From assembly GCA_013002165.1 (NCBI GenBank), contig JABDKO010000227.1:5142-69141 (forward strand): a DNA stretch of 64,000 bases. The letters are read 5' to 3'. This DNA comes from Rhodothermales bacterium. Lineage in GTDB: Bacteria > Bacteroidota > Rhodothermia > Rhodothermales > JABDKH01. Of this stretch, positions 10,653 to 26,434 are shown piece by piece. Numbering within the stretch: the first letter of the stretch is position 1; each line of letters starts with the position of its first letter. Position numbers and translations under genes: made by a program. Under the pieces are notes generated by a model, which was given only the letters and a program-made list of their open reading frames with translations, did not search any database and was not told the origin of the DNA.

Positions 10653-11034
10653 CATTGCAGTCTCAATTCCAATTCCCTCAAGTTACCCTCGTTGTCGCCT
10701 CACTTCTCCTTCGGGTGTACACCGGAAAATCTTGACAGGATCTACACTGGATGACCGTTGTCCGTTCTTTTACCGACATCCAATTTACCTTAAGTTGTTA
10801 TTTCTAAAAGCCGATAATGCTGTCGAATCGTGTTAACAGTTAGCCCATTGTTAACTCGTCCCACAATAAGATTCGGCAGAAAGATTAACGTCATCTAGCC
10901 ACTGTAAGCGACCCAGAGACTGCCACCACAGTCTGATTGAACACCGGTTAGCATGAAGACTGGTTGATGCGGGAGACCACCCGTTATTGGCCGGGACATC
11001 TGTATGCTGGTTGAAAGCCGCGCTTACATACGAG

Positions 11035-14000
11035 ATGATTATAAAAACTACTGTATCCCACTTGTACAGATTAGCAGTTGCCGCGATCTTCGCCGGCACT
11101 TTCCTTTTGGGGCCATCCGCTCAGGCCCAGATCAAAGTTCCAATCGAGGTCATCGGACCCGACGGCTATACACAGTCGGTGAACGTAAACGTCACTTCGG
11201 CATCCGAAGTCAGCCGGCTCTGGTTGCAGGTTCACTCCCCTGGATACAAGTACGGGGAGGGAAACAAGATGAGCGTCCGGATAAACGGCGGTGCCTGGAC
11301 CGACGTTAACAACCAGATCGCTATATGCGAAGCTCCTGAATCATCGTACGAATGTATCGGTGGAGCTTTTGCTACTGTCCGATTCACAATTCCTGCGACG
11401 GGAGTCATCTCGGGGAATAACACGATCGATTTTCGTTTCAATGGGACCGAAGGGTTGACAATTGGCTACCGTGTTCTGGCGTTCAATTTTGTACGCAGTG
11501 ACAACAGCAAGATTCTGCCCGAGTCTACCTTCTATTATGACGATCCTTCCCTGTGGACCGCTCCACTGACAAGCCAGAGTGACATCGATCGCGGAAAACA
11601 ACTGTGGGAGTCAGAACCGCTTCTCGACTTCGGGAATGTATCGATTACTGCGACATGCGCAGACTGCCATGCAAAAGACGGTCGGGATTTGCAGTACTTC
11701 GCGTACTCGAATCATTCGATCATCGAACGAAGCAAGTTCCATGGAATGTCTCAGACCGAGGGCGAGCAGGTGGCAAGCTATATCCGGAATCTTGCCGTTG
11801 CCAGTCATGGAACACCGTGGGATCCGCCATATCAGCCGGGACCCGGACTTGACGATAAGCCAGCTGAGGAATGGGCCGCAGGTGCCGGGCTCGAATGGGT
11901 TCTTGAAGAAGATGAACAGATGATCCCGCACATGTTTCCCGACGGATTTTCTTCCGATCAGATCTTGACGTCAAACGATTTGAACATGAGGGAGATTCCA
12001 ATCGGTATTCAACTTCCTGATTGGAACGAATGGCTTCCACGTGTCCATCCCAAAGATGCCTGGGGCTCTGTGTTCACAACATCGTCCGTCTACACAATCT
12101 ATGCTACCAGCATCCCGAGCACACTGGCCGGCGGAGTACAGAATGCCATAAACAGTGGAAGCATCCTTTCAGTCATGGATAGTTGGGGCGCCGCAATTCG
12201 TGATGGGCGTGGATCGTCCACGTTTAACCCCGACTTTTTCGGCGGATGGGGCTCCGATGGCACCGTTGCCGACTACCAGCTCGGTTATCAGCAGTGGCAG
12301 GCCGTGAAGACGTGGGAGATCATGAACACCTACGAAGGGCTGCAGGAAGCGGCTCCTACGCTGTATCCGGGAGTCGGAGAAGCCAGATCATGGTTCGGCA
12401 ATACGCGATCCGTTTTCGACGTGGCTCCTCACATTTCCGGTCCGCCGCAAACGGGTTCATACCCACACGGCGATCCTCTGCAGAATTTCTTCATGTCGTC
12501 GGCATGGTACGAGCTCCAGCTCATTCTCAACTCGGGCAACCGCAACGGTGTCTCCATCCGGCCGCATGACTGGAAATACCATTACGGTCATATCGGTGAT
12601 ATCATGAAAGAGTCTGGCCGCCGCGAGCCGATGCGCCATCTTAAAGCATATGCTAAAAATATGCAGATGGCTGACAATCGCTATGGCGTTGGCACCGCGA
12701 ATGGCTTCTATCTCCGACACGTAACTCCGAGTCGAATGGTCGGTACCCCCGGCGCAAAGAATCCATTTGAAGACCTTGATTCGGCAACACGGAGAGCCGT
12801 AACTGAGCCGATACTTCGGGCGTTAGTGGTCAAACTGCTTGAGCACGACATCAGTGAATGGTCGCGTCAGACAGGACTGTACGGAATAGAACCGGCTTCG
12901 ACAGTTCCGACTCCCGGTAACGGATTCGATACGTCTACGTACATCGACCACTTCTACCACGCAATACCCGTATTCAATTCAATTGGTGTCGCTCCGACGC
13001 TGTTGGATTCCCTCGCTACCTGGGCAGAATCGGCATGGCCATTGGGTGACTGGCATTCGTTGTATGATTACAATCAGTCAAACAATCCGCCTTCAATTAC
13101 GCTTACGAGTCCTGCAAATGGAACGACCTATACAGAACCGGCAACCATCGCAATGTCCGCGAGTGCATCCGACATTGACGGTTCAGTAGTAAGCGTCAAG
13201 TTCTTCCAGAACGGAATTCAGATTCATGAAGATAATTCAGCTCCGTATTCCTATACGTGGTCTGGTGTTGTTCCAGGAACGTACACAATCTCGGCCCTCG
13301 CCGAGGACAATTCGAGTGCGACCGCTGTCTCCGGATCTGTTAGCGTGACCGTTAACAGTGACAACCCCGGTCCGCCACCTTCAAACAATGACCCGACAGT
13401 TGCAATTACCAGCCCTCTCGCAGGAGCGAGCTACGATGAAGGAGACAACATTGTTATAGAGGCGAACGCTTCGGATTCTGACGGATCTGTGTCCGTCGTC
13501 CAATTCTATCAGAACAACATTCTGCTCGGTCAGGATACGTCTGCTCCGTACTCGTTTACATGGTCGAATGTGCAGGAAGGCGCGTATGCGCTGTCCGCCG
13601 TAGCAACCGATAATGACGGCGCATCCACGACATCAAACTCGATAGTCGTCACGGCAGGTGATAATCCGGGTCCGCCGCCGACAATCACTGAGACACAGAC
13701 TATTGATCTGGTTGTTGGTTGGAATCAAGTCTCCACCTACGTTGCACCGCAGGTAAGCGAGATTGCTTCGATCTTCCAGCCGATTGTGTCCGATATTTTC
13801 CTTGTCAAGGATGTTGTGGGCAACTCATACCACCCGGCACTCGGAATTAATACGATCGAAAACTGGAATTCACTTGAGTCCTATCAAGTGTATGCGAATG
13901 CTGCTTCGACATTCGATGTAGAGGGAGCCGTTCTCGATCCTTCCACGACTGCAGTCCCGATCGTCGAAGGTTGGAACTACATTCCATACCTGCGCAAGAC

Positions 14001-14841
14001 GAATATGTCGATTGATGAGGCGTTGGTCAATGTTACGTCTGATGTCGTCATGGTAAAAGACTACGCTGGCCGTGTTTATTTCCCTGATTTCCAGATTAAT
14101 GAAATCGGAGATTTGGAGCCGGGCCAGGGTTACAAGCTGTTCGTAAATTCCGGTGGGACACTGACCTATCCAGCGAATGCCGCCGGTGTGGCGAGTCGAT
14201 CCAAGGAAGAGTCTGGTCAGGTTCTCGTCGGCATAGCGAGCTCGTCGCTTGTAGTCGTTGATGCCTCAAAACTTCCGGGTGCCCGCAGAGTTTTCGCGGT
14301 TCTTGAGAACGGAACCCGGATTGGTGAGGCGTGGATCTCATCGGTTACAAATCAGGCCTATGTCAAGGTAAGAGGTGACGATGACGTGACCATCGATCTC
14401 GTCGAGGGAGCACTCAACGGAGATCGAATCATTCTTGAAGCGGAGTTTGGTACGGGCGATGTCAAGCGCGTATCGGCCTCCAATATTCAAGATATCCTTG
14501 GCTCAAATACAAGAAGTGTTCTATCCCTGTCCTACAAGACTGATTCGGCGTACCTGGTTGAACTGGGCGAGATTCCAGGAGACTATGTCCTCGAACAGAA
14601 CTATCCGAATCCCTTCAACCCGTCTACAACGATTCGGTATGAGTTACCGGACGATGAGTTCGTCAAGATTGAAGTGTTCAACATGCTTGGTGAGCGTGTC
14701 GCTACACTCGTGAACGAGGAAGTCAGTGCCGGTTCGCATACTGCTACCTTCGAGGCAGACAATATATCAAGCGGCCTTTATGTCTATCGCTTGATCGCTG
14801 GAAGCTATATCGAAGACAGAGCAATGATGTTCTTGAAATAG
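11035..14841 (+). CDS. Secreted multidomain protein: CxxCH module (paralog B), two Ig-like domains, further beta-rich domains and a T9SS C-terminal sorting domain
   Basis: ATG 11035 gives the signal peptide MIIKTTVSHLYRLAVAAIFAGTFLLGPSAQAQ. The track start is TTG 10987. The C-terminus reads NYPNPFNPSTTIRYELP... Confidence 0.85.
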   Translation: MIIKTTVSHLYRLAVAAIFAGTFLLGPSAQAQIKVPIEVIGPDGYTQSVNVNVTSASEVSRLWLQVHSPGYKYGEGNKMSVRINGGAWTDVNNQIAICEAPESSYECIGGAFATVRFTIPATGVISGNNTIDFRFNGTEGLTIGYRVLAFNFVRSDNSKILPESTFYYDDPSLWTAPLTSQSDIDRGKQLWESEPLLDFGNVSITATCADCHAKDGRDLQYFAYSNHSIIERSKFHGMSQTEGEQVASYIRNLAVASHGTPWDPPYQPGPGLDDKPAEEWAAGAGLEWVLEEDEQMIPHMFPDGFSSDQILTSNDLNMREIPIGIQLPDWNEWLPRVHPKDAWGSVFTTSSVYTIYATSIPSTLAGGVQNAINSGSILSVMDSWGAAIRDGRGSSTFNPDFFGGWGSDGTVADYQLGYQQWQAVKTWEIMNTYEGLQEAAPTLYPGVGEARSWFGNTRSVFDVAPHISGPPQTGSYPHGDPLQNFFMSSAWYELQLILNSGNRNGVSIRPHDWKYHYGHIGDIMKESGRREPMRHLKAYAKNMQMADNRYGVGTANGFYLRHVTPSRMVGTPGAKNPFEDLDSATRRAVTEPILRALVVKLLEHDISEWSRQTGLYGIEPASTVPTPGNGFDTSTYIDHFYHAIPVFNSIGVAPTLLDSLATWAESAWPLGDWHSLYDYNQSNNPPSITLTSPANGTTYTEPATIAMSASASDIDGSVVSVKFFQNGIQIHEDNSAPYSYTWSGVVPGTYTISALAEDNSSATAVSGSVSVTVNSDNPGPPPSNNDPTVAITSPLAGASYDEGDNIVIEANASDSDGSVSVVQFYQNNILLGQDTSAPYSFTWSNVQEGAYALSAVATDNDGASTTSNSIVVTAGDNPGPPPTITETQTIDLVVGWNQVSTYVAPQVSEIASIFQPIVSDIFLVKDVVGNSYHPALGINTIENWNSLESYQVYANAASTFDVEGAVLDPSTTAVPIVEGWNYIPYLRKTNMSIDEALVNVTSDVVMVKDYAGRVYFPDFQINEIGDLEPGQGYKLFVNSGGTLTYPANAAGVASRSKEESGQVLVGIASSSLVVVDASKLPGARRVFAVLENGTRIGEAWISSVTNQAYVKVRGDDDVTIDLVEGALNGDRIILEAEFGTGDVKRVSASNIQDILGSNTRSVLSLSYKTDSAYLVELGEIPGDYVLEQNYPNPFNPSTTIRYELPDDEFVKIEVFNMLGERVATLVNEEVSAGSHTATFEADNISSGLYVYRLIAGSYIEDRAMMFLK
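11656..11670 (+). other. CADCH heme-c attachment-type motif in paralog B
   Basis: The codons tgc gca gac tgc cat are in frame, at the position homologous to CSDCH of paralog A. Confidence 0.6.
13081..13680 (+). repeat. Two tandem Ig-like (bacterial Ig / chitobiase-type) domain repeats, each followed by a DNPGPPP linker
   Basis: Repeat 1 is NNPPSITLTSPANGTTY...SAPYSYTWSGVVPGTYTISALAEDN. Repeat 2 is NNDPTVAITSPLAGASY...SAPYSFTWSNVQEGAYALSAVATDN. Confidence 0.75.
14584..14838 (+). other. T9SS (Por) C-terminal sorting domain
   Basis: YVLEQNYPNPFNPSTTIRYELPDDEFVKIEVFNMLGERVATLV...GLYVYRLIAGSYIEDRAMMFLK. Confidence 0.85.
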
Positions 14842-14855
14842 AGCATCGAGTCTTG

Positions 14856-14896
14856 ACAGTCCGGCGCCGGAAACGGCAAGCGGTGAGCCGGACTGT
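14856..14896 (+). terminator. Possible terminator hairpin after paralog B
   Basis: A 10-bp stem ACAGTCCGGC/GCCGGACTGT has a 21-nt loop and starts 15 nt after the stop. It is followed only by TTTCC, a weak T tract. Confidence 0.3.
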
Positions 14897-14959
14897 TTCC
14901 GCCACGGAAGCATCCCACTACAGGCGGTTTCCAAACTGCCCGTCTAACCCACCCAGAAA

Positions 14960-17900
14960 ATGGAAAGAGTACTCGGCCTAGTGGCACTTCTGTGCCTTGC
15001 TACCGGTGTAACTGGTACGGTGCAAGCCCAAACGCATTTCACCGGATGCGTTTCATCAACCGGTGAAAATGCAACGGTGCTTGTTAACGATACGATCGGG
15101 CCATCGATTGATGGTGTTGCACTGGCTAGCGGAGATGAGATTGCCGTCTTTACGACGGAAGGACTATGTGTCGGTGTTGAGGTCTGGACGGGTATCAACA
15201 TCGCACTTACCGTTTGGGGAGACAATTCCCTGACCACAGAAAAAGACGGGTTGTCTGCCAGTGAGCAGATGAATTTTGTGGTCTGGGATGCGTCCTCTCA
15301 AACGGAATTTGGAAACAGTTACGGATCCGTTGATGTGGCATACAGTTCAGTTTCGCCATATAACGGCACCGGTCTCTATGACTCGGATGCCATATACCAG
15401 TTGACTCTGCTAGCGGCCAGCACACCGCGACATCCGGTGGCCGCAGCTTCGGCAACCCCGACTTCGGGAAGCACACCGCTACTCGTCACGTTCGATGCAA
15501 GCGCGTCTTCTGATGAAGATGGATCGATTATTTCATACGCATGGGACTTCGGCGATGGCGGATCCGGGTCGGGCGTTGGCACAACCAATACCTTCATGTC
15601 TGCCGGCACCTATCCGGTTGTCTTGACCGTGACCGACGATGATGCCTACTCCTCCACAGACACGGTAACGATCGTCGTTTCGCCTGCTCCTACAAACGTG
15701 CCGCCCACAGCTTCCTTTTCCCTGACTCCTGATTCCGGCCAGGCACCTCTTACTGTCACCGTCGATGCATCAGGGAGTTCTGACTCCGATGGATCCATCG
15801 TCTCGTACACATGGACATTTGGTGATGGAAGCTCTGCGACGGGTGTCAGCGCATCCCACGAGTATAGCCAGGCAGGTACATTCAGCGTCGTGCTGACTGT
15901 TACTGACGATGATGGAGCAACGGCGTCAGAAACCCGAACAGTAAGCGTTCTGGAGCCGAACAATCAGCCGCCAGCGGCTGCCTTCTCTGCCTCCACGTCT
16001 ACGGGAGTTATTCCACTTCTCGTTACATTCGATGCCTCATCCAGTACTGATCCCGACGGGTCAATTGCTACGTACACCTGGAATTTTGGAGATGGAAGTG
16101 CGGCTACCGGTGTCTCGACATCAAAGACATATACTGTCGCAGGAAGCTACATTGTCACTCTTACCGTCACCGACGACGATGGCGCATCTTCATTAACGCA
16201 GCAGACTATACTTGCTTCGGCAGGCACCTCGAATTTGCCACCGGTAGCAGCATTCACGCTGACACCTAGTGTAGGTACGGCACCTGTCACCGTCGCAACC
16301 GACGGTAGTGCCTCAACGGATTCAGACGGAACGATTTCTTCGTACGCATGGGACTATGGTGACGGCGCTACTGGAACCGGCGTTACTGATTCGCACACCT
16401 ATTCAACGTCGGGCACGTACACAGTCACACTTACCGTCAGCGACAACAATGGTGCAACTGGAAGTTCGTCACAGACGGTAACAGTCTCGTCTCCACCCAC
16501 CGCCGGACCTCTGGTTATGCACCTGACATTCGATGAGTCGTCGGGACAAAACGCAACTGATGTTTCCACGAACGGCAATGATGGTACGTTGCAGGGCGGG
16601 GCGGAGTTTGCGACAGCTGGCATACTATCAGGAGCAGTTCTGCTGAATGGTGGCGACGCTTATGTCGATGTGGCTGACAATGCAGTGCTTAATCAGCAGA
16701 TTGTGAGTAAACGAACGATTTCCATTTGGTTCAGGGCGGATGACGTCTCTGTATCGTCTCGGAAACAGGTCATCTGGGAAGAGGGAGGTCAGCAGAAAGG
16801 CCTTTCGATCTATCTTTTCAATGGATCCCTGTACGTGGGTGGCTGGAACAAATCCACTTCCGAAAGTGGTTGGGACGGCACGTTCCTTTCGACAAGTGCC
16901 GTTCAGTCAAATACGTGGAATCATGTTGCACTTGTGCTCAATGGTGGGCCCACTGTCAGCCCGGGCGCATTGCTGGGATATCTCAATGGGGCTTCCATCG
17001 GAAACGGTACCGCTTCCCAGGTCTGGTCTCACAATGATGACATTGGCATCGGGCGCGTAGATGGCGATACCTGGTTTCATGACGCTACCAATAAGAGCGG
17101 ACAAACACACGGATTCTCTGGGTATATCGATGATGTTCGCGTCTATAACCAGGTACTGACGCAGCCTGAGATCAACGATCTGGCGAATGGCGGCGGGGCA
17201 TCACAGAATCTGCCTCCGAACGCCGTGATTGATGTCGATCAGCAGAGCGGACCTGCGCCACTCCAGGTAAATTTTTCGGCAACGCGTTCTTCCGATAACG
17301 ATGGCAGCATTCAAAGTTACTCGTGGACTCTGGGTAATGGTGAATTCGGAACGGGCCCGACAGTGGCGGCATCGTATACGACGGCCGGGACGTACTCCGT
17401 GACTCTCACAGTGATTGACAACGATGGTGCAACATCCTCCGCGAATGCGACGATTACAGTCGAGCAAACCGTTGGAAATGCACCCCCTCGAGCAGAGATA
17501 GTCGAAACTCTGGGTCGGCGAAACTCCATGTCGATTTCGCTGAACGGAGAGTCATCTTCCGATCCCGACGGGTCGATTGTTCACTACGACTGGGACTTTG
17601 GTGATGGGGCTACAAGCACGGGGCCGTCCGCAACGCATGAGTACTCATCACCCGGATCGTTTCAGGTAATTCTTACCGTGACGGATGACGTGGGACTACA
17701 GGGATCATCAACTTTCTGGGTTTCCGTCTACGATCTGCTTCCAGAAGGAACCGGAAGCAGCCTCGTGGGAGCCGGACAGGGTCAGGACCCGGGCTTTGCC
17801 AGCTACGACGGAGAGACACTGACGCTGCGATCGTCGGCCGCAGTTCCTTCAGCATCTTCCGATGTGTTTCGATTTGTTCATGAGACGGTATCTGGTGACG

Positions 17901-18574
17901 CAACGATCACAGTAAGAATTGAAGAGATCAGTTCCGGTCAGAGCTCTGCACGCATCGGCGTGATGCTTCGCAGTCAGCTCACGCCGGCTGCAACCATGGC
18001 ACATTTGACCATCGATGGCACGGGGCAGGCACATCTCGAGAGTCGCCCCGTAGCAGGTGCTCCGGCGACCTTCTCATCGGCTGGTAGCTTCGGGATTCCC
18101 GGGTGGATCCGGATTAGCCGTCAGGGCAATACATTCAGAACCTTTGCTTCGGTAGATGGTGCAGTATGGACGCCGACAGGGCAGGTCGAGATAGGAATGC
18201 CGGAAACTGTATTTATGGGTGTGACCGCGTCATCCCAATCGGGGTCATCGTTTGACGCCAGTCTTGACAACGTCGCATTCGAGTCGACCGATGAAGCCCT
18301 GCCGGCTGGATACCTTCTGTCTGAAGCCTACCCGAACCCGTTTAATCCGGCCTCGCAGATAACCCTGGTGGTAGACCAGGCGCAGGAGATAAGCGTTTCC
18401 GTGTACAGTGTTACCGGTGTTTTAGTCCAGCAATTGTTCATCGGTGAAGTCGCCGCAAACCAGCTGTACGAATACAGATTTGCTGCGACGGATGGACTTG
18501 CCAGTGGCACTTATTTCTTGCGGGTTTACGGAGAATCCTTTGCGGCAACGAGAGCCGTGGTTTTACTCAAATAA
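14960..18574 (+). CDS. Secreted 1204-aa adhesin-like protein: six PKD domains, a LamG/ConA-like domain, a second ConA-like domain and a T9SS sorting domain
   Basis: It has the signal peptide MERVLGLVALLCLATGVTGTVQAQ, PKD signatures (FDASxSxDxDGSIxSYxWxFGDG...YxVxLTVTDDDG) and a C-terminal YPNPFNPASQITLVV. Confidence 0.9.
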   Translation: MERVLGLVALLCLATGVTGTVQAQTHFTGCVSSTGENATVLVNDTIGPSIDGVALASGDEIAVFTTEGLCVGVEVWTGINIALTVWGDNSLTTEKDGLSASEQMNFVVWDASSQTEFGNSYGSVDVAYSSVSPYNGTGLYDSDAIYQLTLLAASTPRHPVAAASATPTSGSTPLLVTFDASASSDEDGSIISYAWDFGDGGSGSGVGTTNTFMSAGTYPVVLTVTDDDAYSSTDTVTIVVSPAPTNVPPTASFSLTPDSGQAPLTVTVDASGSSDSDGSIVSYTWTFGDGSSATGVSASHEYSQAGTFSVVLTVTDDDGATASETRTVSVLEPNNQPPAAAFSASTSTGVIPLLVTFDASSSTDPDGSIATYTWNFGDGSAATGVSTSKTYTVAGSYIVTLTVTDDDGASSLTQQTILASAGTSNLPPVAAFTLTPSVGTAPVTVATDGSASTDSDGTISSYAWDYGDGATGTGVTDSHTYSTSGTYTVTLTVSDNNGATGSSSQTVTVSSPPTAGPLVMHLTFDESSGQNATDVSTNGNDGTLQGGAEFATAGILSGAVLLNGGDAYVDVADNAVLNQQIVSKRTISIWFRADDVSVSSRKQVIWEEGGQQKGLSIYLFNGSLYVGGWNKSTSESGWDGTFLSTSAVQSNTWNHVALVLNGGPTVSPGALLGYLNGASIGNGTASQVWSHNDDIGIGRVDGDTWFHDATNKSGQTHGFSGYIDDVRVYNQVLTQPEINDLANGGGASQNLPPNAVIDVDQQSGPAPLQVNFSATRSSDNDGSIQSYSWTLGNGEFGTGPTVAASYTTAGTYSVTLTVIDNDGATSSANATITVEQTVGNAPPRAEIVETLGRRNSMSISLNGESSSDPDGSIVHYDWDFGDGATSTGPSATHEYSSPGSFQVILTVTDDVGLQGSSTFWVSVYDLLPEGTGSSLVGAGQGQDPGFASYDGETLTLRSSAAVPSASSDVFRFVHETVSGDATITVRIEEISSGQSSARIGVMLRSQLTPAATMAHLTIDGTGQAHLESRPVAGAPATFSSAGSFGIPGWIRISRQGNTFRTFASVDGAVWTPTGQVEIGMPETVFMGVTASSQSGSSFDASLDNVAFESTDEALPAGYLLSEAYPNPFNPASQITLVVDQAQEISVSVYSVTGVLVQQLFIGEVAANQLYEYRFAATDGLASGTYFLRVYGESFAATRAVVLLK
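15434..16490 (+). repeat. Four tandem PKD domain repeats (protein-level repeats)
   Basis: Four roughly 88-aa units each contain the D-x-DG-S-I pattern, W-x-FGDG and LTVTDDDG-like motifs. Confidence 0.85.
16505..17195 (+). other. LamG / concanavalin-A-like lectin domain
   Basis: The region runs LVMHLTFDESSGQNATDVSTNGNDGTLQGGAEF...WNHVALVLNG...GYIDDVRVYNQVLTQPEINDL. Confidence 0.7.
17211..17730 (+). repeat. Two further PKD domain repeats
   Basis: Supporting segments are SSDNDGSIQSYSWTLGNGEFG...TLTVIDNDG and SSDPDGSIVHYDWDFGDGAT...ILTVTDDVG. Confidence 0.8.
18313..18571 (+). other. T9SS C-terminal sorting domain
   Basis: LLSEAYPNPFNPASQITLVVDQAQEISVSVYSVTGVLVQQL...GTYFLRVYGESFAATRAVVLLK. Confidence 0.85.
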
Positions 18575-18720
18575 GATTTCGTTTGAGAAAACTGGATGTG
18601 GGTCGATTCTTGTCAATAAGTAGTGAAGGGCTCGTTACATGTCGCAAGTAGACGGAAAATATCGTATAACTTTAAGTCGATATTCTCAACTTTCTGACGG
18701 CTCTTTCCGTCCAACCCCTT

Positions 18721-19035
18721 ATGATTGCTGAAGCTGAAATGATCTCCGAAAAAGCGTATATAATCGTAAGTAAAGATCTTCTATCATCGAGGCTGGGCGA
18801 CGAGATTGTAATCCTTAGTGTCAACGGTGGGAAATACTACGGTCTCAATCCTCTCGCGGCGTTCGTCTGGGGCCTGCTTGCAGATCCAGTCAAATTCAAT
18901 GACTTGAAGATGGCTGTCCTGCAAGAGTATGAAGTCCCTGAAGATAAATGTGTCGCCGATCTGAACAAGCTGATCGTCGATCTACAGAAAGAAGGCCTCG
19001 TCAGCATTGCTGAAGAGAATCCGGTCACGTCCTGA
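18721..19035 (+). CDS. PqqD-like RiPP recognition element (lasso peptide B1 protein)
   Basis: 104 aa with the pattern LGDEIVILSVNGGKYYGLNPLAAFVWGLL...LQEYEVPEDKCVADLNKLIVDLQKEGLV, typical of PqqD/RRE proteins. The start could also be the Met at 18739. Confidence 0.85.
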   Translation: MIAEAEMISEKAYIIVSKDLLSSRLGDEIVILSVNGGKYYGLNPLAAFVWGLLADPVKFNDLKMAVLQEYEVPEDKCVADLNKLIVDLQKEGLVSIAEENPVTS

Positions 19036-19101
19036 GGCTCCGGTTGACCTTCACATTTCGTGACCGCTCGAGACACTTCGAGACCGTCAATCGGGCATAG
19101 C

Positions 19102-20004
19102 ATGAAACACTATTCGGTCTACGGCCTCAACATTTCGTCAGAATTCGAACTCCTCGGCGCACGCACTACAACCCCGTCTCCGGTACCAGATGTCGTGGTG
19201 ACGCGGACCAGTCTTGATTTGCCGTCATCCGAATCTTTTGAAGATGGAAGGTATTCGTCCGCCACAATGTACGAGGCCTTACTTGCCTGGGAAAAGGTTG
19301 GCTGCATACGGATCTTGAGTGGGAAGGAGATACAGGTCGCGCCGATCGCAGGTATTCCCGATGCTGTTGTCAGCCTTTTCATAACGGGTGTAGCGATGGG
19401 TGTTTTGCTTCACCAACGAGGTTTTCTCGTATTGCACGCGAGCGCCGTCCGCATTCAGGACAAAGTCGCTGCATTCATCGGTTTCAAGGGCATGGGTAAA
19501 TCAACGACCGCCGCTGCCATGGTCGGTCAGGGCGCATCGCTGGTCTCTGATGACATCCTTGCAATCGACGGTGATTTCCTTGCGCGTCCAGGCTCCGATC
19601 TTGTCAAATTGTGGCCGCGTGCACTCAGCGCCGCTCTCGAAGATGATCCTGAAGAGAGTCCTGCCTTGTATCCCGGGATTGAAAAGCGTGCAAAGGTATT
19701 TCCAGACTCAGTTGTCGCTGAGCCGTTTCCACTCAGGGCGATCTACGTGCTCGATTCCGGCAACACAGTATCCATTCAAGATGTTGCGCCTGCCGCTGCG
19801 TTCCTTGAGATCATGCGTCATACCTACGCTCCACGTTTTGTGGGTACAGATGGGACGCCGCCGGAATTGTTTGCACAGTGCACACGTTTGGTATCGCAGA
19901 TTCCGGTATTCCGACTGCATCGAAAGCCGGACCTTGCTGAGTTGTCGTCTGTTGCTGTTGCGGTTGAAAGCCACTTCTCGGATCTTCTAGTACAGAATGA
20001 GTGA
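19102..20004 (+). CDS. HPr kinase/phosphorylase-like serine kinase (lasso-peptide tailoring kinase type)
   Basis: MKHYSVYGLNISSEFEL... then LLHQRGFLVLHASAV...AFIGFKGMGKSTTAAAMVGQGASLVSDDI (P-loop). It has an 8-nt overlap with the B2 gene. The track start at 19060 is a probable 5' over-extension. Confidence 0.8.
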   Translation: MKHYSVYGLNISSEFELLGARTTTPSPVPDVVVTRTSLDLPSSESFEDGRYSSATMYEALLAWEKVGCIRILSGKEIQVAPIAGIPDAVVSLFITGVAMGVLLHQRGFLVLHASAVRIQDKVAAFIGFKGMGKSTTAAAMVGQGASLVSDDILAIDGDFLARPGSDLVKLWPRALSAALEDDPEESPALYPGIEKRAKVFPDSVVAEPFPLRAIYVLDSGNTVSIQDVAPAAAFLEIMRHTYAPRFVGTDGTPPELFAQCTRLVSQIPVFRLHRKPDLAELSSVAVAVESHFSDLLVQNE

Positions 20005-20464
20005 TGAGAAAACATCGTACGAAGGTCGCTTCGATCGAAAATTTGCAGGCGATGGGATTCTCTTCGTCCGGGCACTACTCTTACTAGTCGTTGCCAGGCT
20101 GAGTCTCGCCGCAACAGACTATGTCCGGACAGCGAAGCTATTCGGAGAACAGGATTCCTTTGACAGCGACAGGGGGCAAGCTCAAGGCCTTGCCACTTTC
20201 AGATATCGCGCCGCCTGGGCAGTCTCAAAAGCCTCGCGTATCGTTAGATATGACCGTCCATGCCTTGCTCAGGCACTCGTGCTTCGTTTTATCCTTAGAA
20301 GAAAAGGAATATCATCTGACCTGCGCATCGGCGTAAAGAAAAATGACGACCTGTCGATTCGAGCACATGCGTGGGTCGAGAAGGACGGAATTGTTCTGAT
20401 AGGAGGTGCGTCCTCTCCGTTCAGATACACGATGCTCACCCCGGAAGATCAGATAACGCTATGA
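19997..20464 (+). CDS. Lasso peptide leader peptidase B2 (transglutaminase-like Cys protease)
   Basis: 155 aa with the catalytic Cys context RPCLAQALVLRFILRRKGI and His context IRAHAWVEKDGIVLIG. Confidence 0.85.
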   Translation: MSDEKTSYEGRFDRKFAGDGILFVRALLLLVVARLSLAATDYVRTAKLFGEQDSFDSDRGQAQGLATFRYRAAWAVSKASRIVRYDRPCLAQALVLRFILRRKGISSDLRIGVKKNDDLSIRAHAWVEKDGIVLIGGASSPFRYTMLTPEDQITL

Positions 20465-22443
20465 GTGGTCTGGCAGGAATTGTGTTCCGTGATGACCGCC
20501 ACGGGGCTGCCAATTTGATTGACAACATGGTTCAGTCAATGCAATATCGTGGGCCAGACGGGATTGACATCTGGACGAACGCGCATGCAATGCTGGGCCA
20601 GTGCACCCTTCAATCTTCCTCATTCTCTGGATCCGCAATTGCCACGGGCCAGAGCAATGATCGTTTCGTGGTCGTTGGTGATGTGCGCATTGATAACAGA
20701 GATGAACTCCTTAAAATCTGTGGTCATCCGGGAAGTGGACACCCTGCGTCGAAGTCGGACCTTGCACTCGTGAAGTTATTGTTTGAGTCGAGCGGAGATG
20801 CCTTCATTGATTCTATTGAAGGAGATTTTGCATTCGTCCTGTACGATGTTGCCGAGAGAACTATTCGCTGCTACCGCGATCATTTTGGTACGCGCCCGTT
20901 TTACTATTTCCTGAATCGAGACCTGTTTGTTTGTGCATCAGATATCAAGGGAATAATAGCATCGGGTCTGGTTGAGGACACAATCGACACCGACAAACTA
21001 GAGGACTATCTTGTCGGGAATCTTGCGAACCAGGAGAGAACGTTTTATAAAAACATCCGGCGACTGCCACCGGCAAGCGTCATGCTGGTCGACCCGGAAA
21101 ACGTGAAGTTGCATAAGTACTGGAGCGTCGACCAGGTTGAAACGATCGATGCACCGGAGGATCAGATGATCGCCGGTTTTCGCAGCCGATTTCTCACTGC
21201 TGTCAAGAATCGTATCGGATCAGCAGGCGATACTGCATTCATGCTGAGCGGCGGACTTGACTCATCGTCGGTGGTATCCAGTGCAGCCCACATTGCTGCC
21301 GGTAACACGAAAAGATTCAAAACCTATTCCGTCGAATTTCCCTATCTGCCTGACAAGATTAGAAGTCGTACCGATGAAACGGAATATGTAGATGCGGTAG
21401 TTGGTAGCAGCGGTTTGGTCAGTAGTCGGCTCGCAGGTGACACCCAGACGCCACTATCGAGCCTGCAAAGAATGCTGGAGATACACGACGAACCATTTCT
21501 CGTCCCAAATGCTTACCTCGACGCTATCGCTTTGTCTGCAGTACATCACGATGGATGCAAGGTGTTGCTCACCGGACTGGAAGGAGATCTGACTATATCG
21601 CATGGCGATTGGTACTTGAAAGAATTAGGATTCAAAGGTGAGTGGCAGTCGTTCGTCCGCGAGAGCCGTGCCCTGGCAGCCAGAACGGAGAGCGAGCCAG
21701 AGTTGTTTTTTGAACGGTATGCTGTGCCTACTCTCCAGGAACTGGCTCGCTCCGGAGAATGGGGAGCCTTCCGGCGTGGCGCTTCTTCAATGGGACAAGA
21801 ATACGGAGATTCAACCGCGGGCCTGATCTGGCGTCTTGGAATGAGACCCACTTTAGCATCAATATTCAGGAGATTCTCTCAGCGCGAGACACTGGAGGAT
21901 GAGCGGGCATTAAGATTTGTAAGTAGAAAATACCCTGGTCGGAAGGACATCATCGCCCGAATTAACGAAAGTTCACACGAGATGGACCATTCGCGGACCC
22001 AATTTGACCATCATGTTGGTCAGCTGCAGTCCGGGTATCCGGCTTCGCTGCTCGAATTTGCCGAAAAAAACGCCGCAAACTGGCAAATCGACGTTCGTCA
22101 TCCGTTTTTTGACCGCCGACTGGTCGAGTACTCCGTCGGCCTCCCCGGGAGCGCTAAATTATCTGACGGATGGGCCCGATATATACTGCGGGCATCTATG
22201 GAACAGATATTGCCTGATAAAGTACGTTGGAGGGCTCAGAAAGCGGCTCTCGGGCCCAATTTTGCCTATTTGATGGGTAAGGAGTCCGAGGATCGCATAC
22301 GTGCCCTCGCTGAAACGGCAATACAGTATTTTCCGTATATCATTGATAAATCAAGTGTTAGCAACTTGATAAATCGACAGAAATACGCTACTTTGTGGAG
22401 AATACTGGTACTGGGAGGCTGGGTTTTGCAGAAACGATCCTGA
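20461..22443 (+). CDS. Lasso peptide cyclase (asparagine-synthetase-like, C protein)
   Basis: ATG 20461 overlaps the B2 stop (ATGA). It starts MSGLAGIV, so the Cys2 glutaminase nucleophile is absent, but it keeps the PP-loop FMLSGGLDSSSV. The track start at 20371 is an over-extension. Confidence 0.9.
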   Translation: MSGLAGIVFRDDRHGAANLIDNMVQSMQYRGPDGIDIWTNAHAMLGQCTLQSSSFSGSAIATGQSNDRFVVVGDVRIDNRDELLKICGHPGSGHPASKSDLALVKLLFESSGDAFIDSIEGDFAFVLYDVAERTIRCYRDHFGTRPFYYFLNRDLFVCASDIKGIIASGLVEDTIDTDKLEDYLVGNLANQERTFYKNIRRLPPASVMLVDPENVKLHKYWSVDQVETIDAPEDQMIAGFRSRFLTAVKNRIGSAGDTAFMLSGGLDSSSVVSSAAHIAAGNTKRFKTYSVEFPYLPDKIRSRTDETEYVDAVVGSSGLVSSRLAGDTQTPLSSLQRMLEIHDEPFLVPNAYLDAIALSAVHHDGCKVLLTGLEGDLTISHGDWYLKELGFKGEWQSFVRESRALAARTESEPELFFERYAVPTLQELARSGEWGAFRRGASSMGQEYGDSTAGLIWRLGMRPTLASIFRRFSQRETLEDERALRFVSRKYPGRKDIIARINESSHEMDHSRTQFDHHVGQLQSGYPASLLEFAEKNAANWQIDVRHPFFDRRLVEYSVGLPGSAKLSDGWARYILRASMEQILPDKVRWRAQKAALGPNFAYLMGKESEDRIRALAETAIQYFPYIIDKSSVSNLINRQKYATLWRILVLGGWVLQKRS

Positions 22444-22456
22444 ATTTTTACTTTTG
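22425..22456 (+). promoter_or_regulatory. Candidate Bacteroidetes-type promoter (TTTG-N20-TACTTTTG) for the precursor gene
   Basis: TTTG at 22425-22428 and TAnnTTTG at 22449-22456, spaced 20 nt apart, lie 66 nt upstream of the precursor ATG. This is meaningful only if the host uses the Bacteroidetes sigma-A consensus. Confidence 0.3.
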
Positions 22457-22522
22457 GATCGTACTCAAAGCTAGGTGATTCAGTACAGTACATAACATCA
22501 AGCCTTAATTAAGGAATAAGAC

Positions 22523-22681
22523 ATGTCAAACAACGAGAAAAAGGCTTACGAAGCTCCGGCTTTGACCGTCTATGGCAATGTCGAGGAGATCACAAGCTCA
22601 AAGACGTGGCACGCTGCGTCTGACTGGCTTGGCGAAATCGTCGATTACATGTCGCCAAAAGACAACGACTTCTCGTCCTAA
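22523..22681 (+). CDS. Lasso peptide precursor (A), 52 aa; not in the supplied ORF track
   Basis: It translates as MSNNEKKAYEAPALTVYGNVEEITSSKTWHAASDWLGEIVDYMSPKDNDFSS. AAGGA lies 7 nt upstream of the ATG. The leader fits YxxPxLx3Gx5Tx exactly (Y9 P12 L14 G18 T24). The predicted core has Ser1...Asp9. Confidence 0.85.
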   Translation: MSNNEKKAYEAPALTVYGNVEEITSSKTWHAASDWLGEIVDYMSPKDNDFSS

Positions 22682-22694
22682 GTAAAATTGGGCA

Positions 22695-22710
22695 GGGGCA
22701 TCAGTGCCCC
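22695..22710 (+). terminator. Small GC hairpin just after the precursor stop
   Basis: GGGGCA-tcag-TGCCCC starts 14 nt after the stop codon. Confidence 0.4.
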
Positions 22711-22740
22711 TTAACGGATTCGTTCCGGCTTACGTAAGTA

Positions 22741-22780
22741 AAGCCTCGAGAGATCTCTCTCGAGGCTTTTCTATTTTATT
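22741..22780 (+). terminator. Rho-independent terminator
   Basis: A perfect 12-bp stem AAGCCTCGAGAG / CTCTCGAGGCTT with an ATCT loop is followed by TTCTATTTTATT. Confidence 0.85.
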
Positions 22781-22884
22781 AACGTCCGCTGCACATCAAA
22801 ACTTTTGATTCTGAGCCACATTGAACGATACTTTCTTAATGGAGTGTCGTTTTAACATCAAGCAGAATCTGGGCCTGAATAATC

Positions 22885-24732
22885 ATGATTCCCGAATTCG
22901 GTAAAGATCCGATCAAGGAATGGCGTAAGCTTCGCCGAGCGCTGAGGCTGGTATGGGAGTCGTCCCGGTCGTGGACGACGGCCTGGGGGATTCTGCTTGT
23001 CGTCCAGGGCCTCCTGCCGGCGGCCACGGTGTACCTGATTAAACTTCTGGTGGATGCCCTCGTCGCTACAATGCAAGCCGGAGGCTCAGGAGATACTATT
23101 GCGCCGCTCGTGACGTATGCCCTGTTGATGGCCGCGACACTGTTGGCAACGCAGCTGATGCAGCAAATCCAAAGCTGGATCCGCCTTGCACAGGCCGAAC
23201 ATGCATCTGACTACATCAGAGCAGTTATTCATGACAAGGCTGTAGAGGTCGACTACGGGTTCTATGAGACGCCGCGATACTTTGACCGACTTCATCGGGC
23301 GATATCCGATGCAGGGTCCAAGCCACTGGCGTTGCTCGAGTCTCTTGGCCTGCTTGCGCGGAACGCGATCACCTTGCTGGCAATGGCGGCCATAATCCTG
23401 CCTTACGGATGGTGGCTTCCGGCCCTGCTGATTCTCAGTACAATTCCGGCGTTTCTCGTAATCCTCCGTTACAATCGGAAAACGCACGCATGGTGGGAGT
23501 CGAGGACGACTGATCGCCGGTGGGCCCACTACTTTGATACGTTGCTGACGCACAGTTCGATGGCGGCTGAGGTCAGGCTGTTTAATCTTGGGCCCAACTA
23601 CTCATCCTTGTATCAGGATGTCAGAAAGGTTCTGCGCCGTGAACGTATTGACATCGAACGGCGAAATGTAGTTGCTCGAGGCAGCGCAGCACTCCTTGGT
23701 CTTCTTGTTCTGGCATTCGCGATGGGATGGATGGGCCTGCGTGCCATTAGAGGTGAGGTAACGCTAGGTGATATCGCGCTCTTCTACCAGGCATTCAATC
23801 AGGGTCAACAGCTGCTGAAGGGACTTCTGGGCTCCGTCGGGCAGATCTACAACAGCAGCCTGTTTCTCGACAACTTGTACGACTTTCTCGATCAGGAGCC
23901 ATCCATCGCCCATGAAGAAAATGCTCCACCGTTTCCATCCGAAGTTTCAGAGATCGAGTTTCGCGATATAACATTCCACTACCCCGAGTCAGCGCGAGCG
24001 GCACTGACTGGATTCAATCTTCGTATTGATGGTACGTCTTCAACGGCAATTGTCGGTCAGAACGGGGCCGGGAAAAGCACGCTTCTCAAACTTCTCTGCC
24101 GGTTCTACGACCCGCAGCAGGGAAGTGTTATGGTTAACGGTCGAGACATTCGCGAATATAATCTTCGAAGTCTTCGAGATTCGATTGCTGTTCTTTTTCA
24201 GTTCCCCGTCAACTTTCACGCAACGGTTGAAGAATCGATACACCTTGGCAGTATCGCACAGCCGGTAGACACGACGAGGGTTGAAGAAGCGGCGGTTGTA
24301 GCCGGAGCGGATTCGTTCATCAAGTCGCTTCCTGCAGGGTACGGTTCATTGCTCGGTAAATGGTTTGTAGACGGGCAGGAACTGAGTGGTGGAGAATGGC
24401 AGCGACTGGCAATGGCAAGGGCAATTTACCGGGACGCGCCAATAGTACTGCTGGACGAGCCGACCAGCATGATGGATTCGTGGAGTGAGGCAGACTGGTT
24501 CAATCGTCTGCTCTCACATTCGGATGGAAAGGCCTTGTGCGTAATCACGCATAGGCTCACAATCGCGAAGAGGGCAGCTACAATTGTTGTCATGCATCAG
24601 GGCAACATCGTGGAGCGAGGAACCCACGATGAACTGATCGCAAGAAATGGTCGCTACGCAGAGTCCTGGTTCGAACAACATTCGGAGGATGTGGAGGGCA
24701 GTCCTCGCGAAGTCGGGGGTGCTGGCGGATGA
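22885..24732 (+). CDS. ABC transporter, fused permease/ATPase (lasso peptide exporter/immunity type, McjD-like)
   Basis: The N-terminal half has six hydrophobic spans. It has Walker A GQNGAGKST, signature LSGGEWQR and Walker B IVLLDEPTS. Confidence 0.9.
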   Translation: MIPEFGKDPIKEWRKLRRALRLVWESSRSWTTAWGILLVVQGLLPAATVYLIKLLVDALVATMQAGGSGDTIAPLVTYALLMAATLLATQLMQQIQSWIRLAQAEHASDYIRAVIHDKAVEVDYGFYETPRYFDRLHRAISDAGSKPLALLESLGLLARNAITLLAMAAIILPYGWWLPALLILSTIPAFLVILRYNRKTHAWWESRTTDRRWAHYFDTLLTHSSMAAEVRLFNLGPNYSSLYQDVRKVLRRERIDIERRNVVARGSAALLGLLVLAFAMGWMGLRAIRGEVTLGDIALFYQAFNQGQQLLKGLLGSVGQIYNSSLFLDNLYDFLDQEPSIAHEENAPPFPSEVSEIEFRDITFHYPESARAALTGFNLRIDGTSSTAIVGQNGAGKSTLLKLLCRFYDPQQGSVMVNGRDIREYNLRSLRDSIAVLFQFPVNFHATVEESIHLGSIAQPVDTTRVEEAAVVAGADSFIKSLPAGYGSLLGKWFVDGQELSGGEWQRLAMARAIYRDAPIVLLDEPTSMMDSWSEADWFNRLLSHSDGKALCVITHRLTIAKRAATIVVMHQGNIVERGTHDELIARNGRYAESWFEQHSEDVEGSPREVGGAGG

Positions 24733-25970
24733 TCAAGACGCACGCTATTCACGAAAACGGGCACGACTCGACAGTGAAGACTGCACGGGAAGGTCCGATC
24801 GTCTCTGGCGCTTCGAGGGAGATGGAATTTATTCTTACCGTTCTTCACGCGAATTGGCCCGAAGCAGGACCCGCTCGTGCGGGCACGTTGATCGAGATAG
24901 GACTCGATTGGCGTTTAGTGCTGCGTCTGGCCATTCATCACGGAGTGATAGATCTCTTTTTTGATAACCTGCGTGGTACAATTGTCGATTTGCTGCCGCA
25001 GAGTCTCACCGATAGCCTTCAGGCCAACAGCCAACTGTCAGCGCACAAGAACCTCTACTTCTCATCAGAGCTGATTCACATTGTCAGCCTTCTGGAGCGC
25101 GGCGGCATTCCGGTAATCTCACTAAAGGGCCCCCTGCTGGGTTCTTACCTGTACGACAATATCTCGCTTCGTCCATTCGGTGACCTGGATCTCGTAGTGC
25201 GCAAAGAGGATATACTTCGAGCCAAAACGATTCTGGTGGAAGAGGGATTCCGGCCGATTTCGATGTTGAGTGCAGATGACGAGAAGGACTACATTGAAAG
25301 TCAATTCGCTCTGACGCTTACTCGCAAACGCGGAGATTTTCAAACTGTGGCTGAGCTTCACTGGGCACTGACTCACAGGTTTTTCTCTTTCAAGTTCGAT
25401 CCGGAAAATGTCTGGACCATGACCGAGCATTTGAAGTTGTCGGACACGACGATAACCACGCTGGCGCGACCTCTGCTGCTACTGTTCCTGTGCGTTCACG
25501 GCGCGAAGCATGACTGGAATCGTATCATATGGCTTTGCGACGTCGTGCGCCTTGCTCAGCGTATGACCGATGAAGACTGGAAAACATTCGAGCACCTCGC
25601 AAACCAAACCCGGTCGGTCAGGATGGCGACAGTCGGATTGGGTCTGGGGCAGCAACTGATGGGTTACACATATCCAGAAGGGATCCTGACACTCATCAAT
25701 TCGGATGCCAGAGGCCAGAAATGGACGACGCGTCTTGCACAGCATTTCAAGAGTGGCGAGACAAACAAGCTGCCAAAGCTGGTGTCGATGCGATTCCAGA
25801 CAGGCGTGCGCGAAAGCGTCCGGGACCGTTGGGGATCTTACTGGCAGCAGTTCAAGCTGCTAATTAGTCCTACTGAGTCGGACAGGAGTTTTATCAAGCT
25901 GCCGAGACTTCTATATCCTCTGTACTATGTCGTACGACCGTTACGTGTAATTCTACAACGTACGCGGTAA
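24729..25970 (+). CDS. Nucleotidyltransferase-fold protein (NTP_transf_5-like), putative lasso tailoring enzyme
   Basis: It has an ATGA overlap with the exporter gene and the Pol-beta-type NTase motif LRPFGDLDLVVRKED. Confidence 0.75.
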   Translation: MIKTHAIHENGHDSTVKTAREGPIVSGASREMEFILTVLHANWPEAGPARAGTLIEIGLDWRLVLRLAIHHGVIDLFFDNLRGTIVDLLPQSLTDSLQANSQLSAHKNLYFSSELIHIVSLLERGGIPVISLKGPLLGSYLYDNISLRPFGDLDLVVRKEDILRAKTILVEEGFRPISMLSADDEKDYIESQFALTLTRKRGDFQTVAELHWALTHRFFSFKFDPENVWTMTEHLKLSDTTITTLARPLLLLFLCVHGAKHDWNRIIWLCDVVRLAQRMTDEDWKTFEHLANQTRSVRMATVGLGLGQQLMGYTYPEGILTLINSDARGQKWTTRLAQHFKSGETNKLPKLVSMRFQTGVRESVRDRWGSYWQQFKLLISPTESDRSFIKLPRLLYPLYYVVRPLRVILQRTR

Positions 25971-25999: not shown

Positions 26000-26434
26000 T
26001 CAGGCGGCCGGCTTTTCTGACTGGACAACCGTTGGTTGAAAACCAGTTGGAACCGAAATTGGACTCTCTTTCGCCGACGAATCTTCCACGAGCAGTGTAG
26101 GGTAGGCGCCGAGGTCAAAGTCGCGTACAAATCGACGAAGTACCTCGGGCAATGAAACGACTATGTTGTCATTTACCTCGCGTATCTCGGATTGCCAGGC
26201 GCGGGCAACAGATGCCGCTTTCGACGGGTCTTTGAAGCAAACACCATCCACGCCCACCATTCGCGAAAGACTACGCGAAACAGGGCACGAATATAGCTTA
26301 CCTCTGATGCCGGAAGGAATAGAGTCGAGGCTATTCATATCCAACGCTGAGCGCGCATCATTCAGGGCGCAGAGTACCTTTCTACGGCTGGGCCGAAAGG
26401 GGAATACCATCATAGCAGTAAGTATCCTATGCAT
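26000..26434 (-). CDS. Hypothetical protein (weak call)
   Basis: It is the only long ORF in the 0.9-kb gap after the lasso cluster. I recognised no motif, and it may be non-coding. Confidence 0.3.
   Translation of the reverse strand: MHRILTAMMVFPFRPSRRKVLCALNDARSALDMNSLDSIPSGIRGKLYSCPVSRSLSRMVGVDGVCFKDPSKAASVARAWQSEIREVNDNIVVSLPEVLRRFVRDFDLGAYPTLLVEDSSAKESPISVPTGFQPTVVQSEKPAA

Follow-up and report, generated by a model that had tools for sequence, protein, structure and literature searches.

Seven co-directional genes at positions 18721 to 25970 on the forward strand of a 64,000-nucleotide stretch of DNA from an uncultured Rhodothermales bacterium (contig JABDKO010000227.1; the whole stretch is hereafter called the window) are likely to form an intact and functional operon for a class II (cysteine-free) lasso peptide. 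The genes lie in the order B1-K-B2-C-A-D-N, and all frames are intact (Table 1). A sequence-only reading of this region had proposed a complete split-B lasso cluster with a kinase (K) and a nucleotidyltransferase (N), and family matches, catalytic residues, predicted folds and related loci bear out this proposal. Judged by its gene content, the cluster is one of the known pseudomycoidin-like and paeninodin-like tailored class II lasso peptides, and not a new type of system. Its closest known counterparts are paeninodin, which is phosphorylated at its C-terminal Ser, and especially pseudomycoidin, whose cluster combines a kinase with a PsmN-type enzyme and yields a phospho-hexose.

Precursor peptide and predicted product

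Gene A encodes a leader, MSNNEKKAYEAPALTVYGNVEEITS (22523-22597), and a core, SKTWHAASDWLGEIVDYMSPKDNDFSS (22598-22678). The leader carries a YxxPxL motif (AYEAPAL) and has Thr at position -2 (EEIT-S), both of which are typical of lasso precursors, as are the small residue at core position 1 and the acidic residue within core positions 7 to 9. The 27-residue core contains no Cys, as expected for class II, has a net charge of about -3 and ends in DFSS. Family assignments were made by searching the window proteins against Pfam and NCBIfam profiles with their curated cut-offs. Here, A scored above the cut-offs of lasso_cyano NF033528 (33.5 bits; cut-off 33) and lasso_leader_L3 NF033521 (22.1; cut-off 19). 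A is also the sole match to a lasso-leader profile, built from related loci, among 958 small open reading frames (ORFs) of the window (E = 2e-10; next best 2.4), and therefore its resemblance to a lasso precursor is not due to chance.

Asp9 is the only acidic residue at core positions 7 to 9, so the predicted product has a nine-residue ring joining Ser1 to Asp9 and an 18-residue tail. Cleavage one residue earlier would require a ten-residue ring, and we know of no lasso rings other than those of 7 to 9 residues. By comparison with characterised relatives, the product is expected to have a threaded lariat topology. The computed monoisotopic mass of the lasso core (core mass minus 18 Da) is 3067.366. 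Additions in multiples of 80 Da, as anticipated in the sequence-only reading, are retained among the predicted masses, but steps of +162 Da are also due, because PsmN functions in hexose addition onto phosphate (PMC6993621). The computed values are 3147.332 with one phosphate, 3227.298 with two, 3309.385 with one phosphate and one hexose, and 3471.438 with one phosphate and two hexoses; transfer of AMP to the lasso or phospho-lasso would add about 329 Da.

Leader recognition, cleavage, cyclization and export

B1 scores 58.2 bits against the PqqD family PF05402 (cut-off 23.4) and 59.4 against the narrower model NF033536, below its cut-off of 80; residues Y39, W50 and P56 are conserved across 42 homologues. 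B2 scores 81.6 bits against lasso_biosyn_B2 NF033537 (cut-off 33), and all 42 homologues keep its catalytic C89 and H124. C matches the lasso isopeptide cyclase model NF033535 over its full length (E = 3e-143; 478.7 bits, below the cut-off of 525) and Asn_synthase with an E-value of 5e-41. D has a Walker A motif at amino acid 391, a signature motif at amino acid 500 and a Walker B motif at amino acid 522, and its near-relatives adjoin K homologues in other phyla (E down to 4e-201).

The motifs quoted in the sequence-only reading are all present, namely RPCLAQ (amino acid 87) and RAHAWVE (amino acid 122) in B2, an N-terminal MSGLAG without the glutaminase Cys2 and an SGGLDSS PP-loop (amino acid 263) in C, and GDLDL (amino acid 151) in N. 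The significant matches of B1, B2 and C to the PqqD, lasso_biosyn_B2 and NF033535/Asn_synthase models agree with its assignments, and the gene overlaps it described are confirmed: 8 nucleotides between K and B2, and ATGA at both B2/C and D/N. The K/B2 overlap is kept in two of the related loci, which are designated below by L and a number (L001 and L085). In L085, an approximately 100-nucleotide gap follows B2 where the window has the B2/C overlap. The cyclase of this locus has been called 32 amino acids short, and the missing N-terminus (LSGFAGYY...) lies in frame at 9363-9514 behind a probable non-ATG start.

If the pathway follows the order of steps in characterised relatives, B1 would bind the 52-amino-acid precursor through its YxxPxL leader, and K would phosphorylate a serine at the C-terminal end (...DFSS) of the still-linear precursor one or more times. 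B2 (Cys89, His124) would cut after the leader, leaving Thr at position -2 and freeing Ser1, and C would adenylate Asp9 and join it to the Ser1 amine, closing the nine-residue ring around the threaded 18-residue tail. N, with a Pol-beta fold and a DxD metal site, would add a further group onto the phosphate, which in the pseudomycoidin equivalent is one or two hexoses. D would export the product.

Kinase and nucleotidyltransferase-fold enzyme

K matches HprK_rel_B (E = 2e-9) and Hpr_kinase_C (E = 4e-4). Residues H112, G127, G132-K133-S134 and D150-D151 are invariant in an alignment of 18 sequences, and G130 is nearly so. Together they have the same spacing as the catalytic motif of BsfK (H148...G163..G166.G168-K169-S170...D186-D187), most of which (all but G166 and G168) matters according to mutagenesis (PMC10368454). 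The catalytic His, GxGKS and Asp-Asp of paeninodin-type kinases are likewise found in K. An AlphaFold (AF2) model of K, with a predicted local distance difference test (pLDDT) value of 93, matches ATP-dependent phosphoenolpyruvate carboxykinase (PEPCK) and the catalytic domain of HPr kinase/phosphorylase (HprK/P; 1kkl), and a sequence search of solved structures with K gave only P-loop noise from FtsY. The start codon of K was placed at GTG 19060 in the sequence-only reading, but all homologues begin at an equivalent M..Y.(A/V)YGL and the NCBI gene call is 300 amino acids long; K most likely starts at ATG 19102 instead.

The GDLDL sequence of N provides the G-D152-L-D154 metal site, and K133, G134, R148, D152 and D154 are invariant in 43 homologues. 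The AF2 model of N (pLDDT 90) best matches ANT(2'')-Ia (5cfs and 4xje; template modelling score ~0.67 on the target), LnuA and TM1012, and FKRP also appears. A sequence search of solved structures with N returned no match. The authors of the PsmN study used 5cfs and 4xje to pick the D134/D136 metal site, and mutating D134 and D136 kills PsmN (PMC6993621). N is a PF14907 transferase with a DxD motif, as in pseudomycoidin, and is likened to PsmN by family, motif and fold only. PsmN is required for the addition of one or two hexoses to the phosphate (PMC6993621, PMC9266682, PMC8498205). Database entries 100% identical to K and N, from a Rhodothermales metagenome-assembled genome (MAG), are annotated as hypothetical or "nucleotidyltransferase family".

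Some PF14907 homologues of N are fused to methyltransferase domains that depend on S-adenosylmethionine (SAM) (P0153, P0154, P0158, P0174, P0178, P0179, P0197, P0204, P0209 and P0214), which suggests that further tailoring chemistry is tied to this enzyme family.

Conservation of the precursor in related loci

The same gene order, with an identical or near-identical precursor, occurs on other metagenome contigs. Proteins of L001 and L002 are about 65-75% identical to those of the window (B1 74, K 71, B2 69, C 65 and D 75.5), and those of L085 are 43-74% identical. A itself is 100% identical in L001 and L002 and 94% identical in L085, and its base differences from the window (14 in L001 and 17 in L002) are all synonymous. 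Codons are identical in 53-73% of the identical residues of A, as against 30-41% in every neighbouring gene of L001, L002 and L085. This nucleotide-level constraint possibly reflects strong expression, a regulatory role of the sequence or exchange of the A segment in the recent past.

Five precursor variants were found. They differ in the leader by A8T and L14M, and in the core by S1T, K21N, D24G and F25Y. The Thr at -2, ring residues K2 to D9 (including T3 and D9), W10 to P20 and the terminal SS never change. From this pattern of substitutions, A is under strong purifying selection in homologous loci, where its reading frame is intact, and the sequence-only reading of A as a genuine precursor holds in this respect.

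The suggestion that the product is without a name and probably new also stands. When 5.8 billion proteins were searched with the precursor, a single cluster, 98% identical, came back. A metagenome scan with the precursor added a further close variant; it also picked up unrelated cores, with which only the leader is shared. Neither of these searches, of proteins and of metagenomes, located the core sequence outside this Rhodothermales clade. A full-text literature search recovered no paper combining "lasso peptide" with a Rhodothermales name.

The window has a single precursor gene. L009, L035, L054, L023, L031 and L093 have two or three with related cores, as do many kinase-bearing lasso loci.

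Comparison with characterised clusters

The pseudomycoidin cluster, psmCAKB1B2ND of Bacillus pseudomycoides (PMC6993621), resembles that of the window in having A, split B1 and B2, C, D, an HPr-kinase-like K and a PF14907-type N with a DxD motif. Both precursors have a nine-residue ring and a C-terminal Ser, and PsmN and the N of the window match the same ANT(2'') structures. However, the two differ in phylum (Firmicutes versus Rhodothermales) and in gene order: N follows D and is translationally coupled to it in the window, but precedes D in the pseudomycoidin cluster. The pseudomycoidin ring joins Ala1 to Glu9, whereas the core in the window is unrelated, longer (27 amino acids) and predicted to close between Ser1 and Asp9.

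Paeninodin, from Paenibacillus dendritiformis, and the ThcoK and SyanK systems (PMC9266682, PMC8498205) share with the window the His-Lys-Asp-Asp kinase motif, the split B and the ABC exporter. Unlike the window, the pade cluster has no N gene, and the core sequences are unrelated. The paeninodin ring, which joins Ala1 to Asp9, is a further likeness. The bsf cluster of Bradymonas sediminis (PMC10368454) is, like the cluster studied here, from a Gram-negative bacterium and contains A, B1, B2, C, D, K and N. The kinase motifs have identical spacing (H...G..G.GKS...DD), and B1 of the window is expected to assist the kinase, as BsfB1 accelerates the BsfK reaction (PMC10368454). BsfA has Ile at -2, a C-terminal Asp and a phosphorylated Ser3, whereas A has Thr at -2 and a C-terminal Ser-Ser; it too has a hydroxyl residue, Thr, at core position 3.

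SynChlorMet-type cassettes (ScmC, PF27840; TIGR04352/TIGR04355) also pair an HprK-related kinase with a PqqD-like protein. K matches HprK_rel_A and HprK_rel_B weakly, and K homologues match ScmC weakly, all far below cut-offs. However, no radical-SAM/SPASM enzyme is present, and the context is clearly that of a lasso cluster.

Phosphorylation site and alternative interpretations

By analogy with characterised relatives, K probably phosphorylates A at its C-terminal Ser. The acceptor of PadeK, ThcoK, SyanK and PsmK is the C-terminal Ser of the linear precursor, which is at times polyphosphorylated (PMC9266682, PMC8498205, PMC6993621). A ends in Ser, and its terminal SS is invariant in the five variants. 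Many precursors adjoining K homologues have a nine-residue ring to Asp9 (G/S1...D9) and end in ...FS, for example ITQ-GGAGTTALD...TFS in Mesorhizobium. It is unlikely, though conceivable, that the same cluster and lasso scaffold have a kinase of the Bsf type, whose target would be Thr3, in the part of the core that later forms the ring, and not the C-terminal Ser. BsfK modifies core Ser3 and accepts Thr at this position, in a cluster that also carries N (PMC10368454); the conserved Thr3 of A is a candidate acceptor, and more than half of the precursors beside K homologues do not end in Ser. However, the Bsf-type precursors on record carry Ile or Val at -2 and do not terminate in Ser (PMC10368454), whereas all variants in the clade of the window have Thr at -2, and the invariant aromatic-Ser-Ser end of A resembles the many ...FS precursors in K loci. 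Because of these two features of A, we favour C-terminal phosphorylation followed by N-dependent decoration.

Several observations count against this interpretation of the cluster. Production, phosphorylation and threading of the peptide are predictions from the genes. The first core residue is Thr in L085, and we know of no characterised lasso peptide with Thr at core position 1. All matches of K to HPr-kinase models fall under curated cut-offs; the earlier description of K as HPr-kinase-like draws on its motif and its PEPCK/HprK/P fold in addition to these weak matches. A C-terminal Ser occurs in just 30 of 74 precursor candidates beside K homologues and is no general rule; hence the kinase family must use more than one acceptor position, and the phosphorylation site is not readable from family membership alone. 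BsfK modifies core residue 3 (PMC10368454), where A has its conserved Thr. Lastly, the group added by N is presumed from PsmN, whose activity has never been demonstrated in vitro (PMC11912497).

In loci L005-L084, the K-associated precursors without a terminal Ser have D, C, P, G or A as their last residue, and a Ser or Thr often lies a few positions before it. Assignment of the site from kinase similarity was dropped, as the last precursor residue varies (C, S, A, G or P) among the closest kinase homologues outside the clade.

The nature of the group added by N also allows another interpretation, which we regard as unlikely: natively, N could be a nucleotidyltransferase or phospho-alcohol transferase that places a nucleoside monophosphate, or X-phosphate from a nucleoside diphosphate-X donor, onto (phospho)serine, giving a phosphodiester or nucleotide conjugate rather than a phospho-hexose. 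Its Pol-beta nucleotidyltransferase fold and DxD motif fit such a role, as do the matches of its model to the adenylyltransferases ANT(2'') and LnuA and to FKRP, which transfers ribitol phosphate from CDP-ribitol. The authors of the PsmN work left open the option that E. coli enzymes provide an indirect route (PMC6993621, PMC9266682), and PsmN, whose donor substrate and true acceptor are not established, has yielded no activity in vitro (PMC11912497). Nonetheless, the sole experimental result for this enzyme family is the addition of 162 or 324 Da to the phosphate (PMC6993621), and no nucleotidylated species has been reported for it. A mature product that is merely branched-cyclic, with the ring formed and the tail unthreaded, would recall pseudomycoidin made without K and N, which is not a threaded lasso (PMC6993621). 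This seems very unlikely given that the full set of B1, B2 and C is present and conserved and that the bulky tail residues W10, Y17, M18 and F25 could plug the ring; the pseudomycoidin study suggested that the bulky group at the C-terminus could itself serve as a lock (PMC6993621). Laboratory silence is frequent among lasso clusters, bsf being one example (PMC10368454), but the notion that the cluster is a decaying or silent remnant without a product is scarcely credible in view of the seven intact frames, the retained K/B2 overlap, the exclusively synonymous changes of A in the closest loci and the compensatory changes in the terminator described below.

Non-coding elements and transcript layout

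Non-coding DNA of the cluster contains several conserved elements (Table 1). The blocks upstream of B1 probably correspond to the promoter/operator region of the operon. In the C-A intergenic region, identity exceeds that of neighbouring coding DNA; TACTTTTG, at 22449-22456, is a TAnnTTTG-like element, and CTAGGTGATTCAG ahead of A is invariant. This region is possibly a dedicated promoter and 5' untranslated region for A. An alignment fold of the region showed no covariation, and therefore we make no claim of RNA structure for it.

Two hairpins follow A. The stem of the terminator-like hairpin differs in sequence in L085, L001 and L002, yet pairing is kept by compensatory changes, and across both hairpins 9 of 24 predicted pairs are changed on both sides in at least one locus. 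This terminator-like element probably acts as an attenuator and keeps A transcripts in large excess over D/N transcripts, and the conserved block that follows it is possibly an internal promoter for D-N. The position of a terminator directly after A, and then of this block, suggests a layout in which a short A transcript would be abundant and D-N would be expressed at a lower level, through read-through or re-initiation.

All three blocks (18602-18670, 22444-22522 and 22804-22832) are more conserved than flanking coding DNA and may be promoters or operators. A scan for sigma-70-type promoters gave 8 sites, compared with 6.1 +/- 2.2 in shuffled controls, which is no excess. An Rfam scan of 18-27 kb detected no known family; its only hits, sub-threshold ones to His_leader, arise from the terminator hairpin.

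Table 1. Genes of the predicted lasso-peptide operon and conserved non-coding elements, in window coordinates
Feature	Position	Strand	Basis
B1, PqqD-type leader-recognition element (RRE), 104 aa	18721..19035	+	PF05402 E 1e-15; lasso_PqqD_Bac E 3e-16
K, predicted HPr-kinase/PEPCK-fold peptide kinase, 300 aa	19102..20004 (alternative GTG start 19060)	+	weak HprK matches, motif, AF2 model
B2, transglutaminase-like Cys/His leader peptidase, 155 aa	19997..20464	+	lasso_biosyn_B2
C, Asn-synthetase-like lasso cyclase, 660 aa	20461..22443	+	NF033535; Asn_synthase
A, 52-aa precursor	22523..22681	+	NF033528, NF033521 above cut-off
D, half-size ABC exporter (transmembrane + nucleotide-binding domains), 615 aa	22885..24732	+	ABC_membrane + ABC_tran
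N, PF14907 nucleotidyltransferase-fold tailoring enzyme, 413 aa	24729..25970	+	NTP_transf_5 E 1e-52
Conserved blocks upstream of B1, GTCGATTCTTGTCAATAAG ... GTCGCAAGT ... TCGTATAA	18602..18670	+	invariant in 4 related loci amid diverged surroundings
C-A intergenic region: TACTTTTG, CTAGGTGATTCAG, CCTT-loop-AAGG just before ATG	22444..22522	+	82% mean column identity, 5 loci
Small hairpin, 13 nt past A stop codon	22695..22710	+	alignment fold; pairs changed on both sides in related loci
Intrinsic-terminator-like hairpin (13-bp stem, 7 G-C pairs) + T-run after A	22740..22777	+	terminator scan
Conserved block TTTGATTCTGAG..TTGAACGATACT between terminator and D	22804..22832	+	near-invariant in 5 loci

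Flanking genes

Two genes lie directly upstream of the cluster (10987-18574). They encode very large secreted proteins that combine PKD/Big_7 repeats with type IX secretion system (T9SS) Por_Secre_tail sorting domains, which fit the Rhodothermales lineage. These genes are syntenic upstream in L085 and L088, and we found no evidence of a functional link between the PKD/Big_7 proteins and the cluster. Downstream are a 144-amino-acid ORF, a CMD protein and a DUF3179 protein. The 144-amino-acid ORF (26000-26434, reverse strand) is convergent with N, has no Pfam match, is 67% identical in L085 and is probably outside the cluster. A family search of the flanks detected no lasso-related match, isopeptidase or regulator. 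Flanking genes were rejected as cluster members, since they have no lasso-related match and owe their conservation in L085 to synteny across the entire region.

Distribution of kinase-bearing lasso loci

Database searches with K found 1,473 proteins at E <= 1e-3, and a genome scan with K matched at least 247 GTDB species. The 80 K loci that were fetched span Acidobacteriota, Chloroflexota, Cyanobacteria, Alphaproteobacteria, Verrucomicrobiota, Bacteroidota and several archaea. Gene context was counted in the 58 fetched GTDB loci that have at least 15 kb of context: 54 of these have a lasso cyclase near K, 35 have an N homologue near it, and the full set of B1, B2, C, D and N occurs in 19. The usual gene order is B1-B2-C-(A)-K-D-N; outside this clade, the order B1-K-B2-C-A-D-N was seen in a single fetched locus, from a Roseivirgaceae MAG (L050). 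In an analysis of rumen bacterial genomes for lasso clusters, HPr-kinase-like genes were present in ~58% and uncharacterised nucleotidyltransferases in ~30% (PMC7533575). By these counts, the kinase-bearing subclass is sparsely characterised by experiment, as the sequence-only reading had stated, yet it is genomically widespread and not small, contrary to the same statement.

Lasso-associated kinase homologues also occur in archaea, in L024 and L048 (Methanothrix), L026, L039, L057 and L061 (Methanobacteriaceae), L046 (Halosimplex salinum) and L020. Several archaeal loci also hold a cyclase and, in some cases, B1/B2 genes, and lasso-like precursors are present in L024, L026, L039, L046, L048, L057 and L061, such as MEKKKSEYFKPELKEHGKLEKITKGGGGLPSEGGEGS in L039.

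Significance

We assume that routine use of antiSMASH or RODEO would probably pick up this cluster, and similar predictions number in the thousands. This one concerns an apparently unnamed, well-supported lasso peptide from a lineage for which our literature search gave none. As a Gram-negative cluster with both K and N, it could help to settle what PsmN-type enzymes do, a question that has been open since pseudomycoidin.

Conservation of the whole precursor, and even of its synonymous sites, 5' region and terminator, far exceeds that of the enzymes. On these grounds the product of A, instead of being an ordinary, fast-evolving antibiotic, could serve a physiological role, as an effector or signal that acts on a single conserved target in this Rhodothermales lineage, its tail perhaps bearing a non-hexose group (a nucleotide or phospho-alcohol) that K and N attach through a phosphodiester, although we consider this improbable. 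More generally, a near-invariant precursor beside fast-diverging enzymes hints at a conserved target, and such a pattern may be useful for choosing clusters to express.

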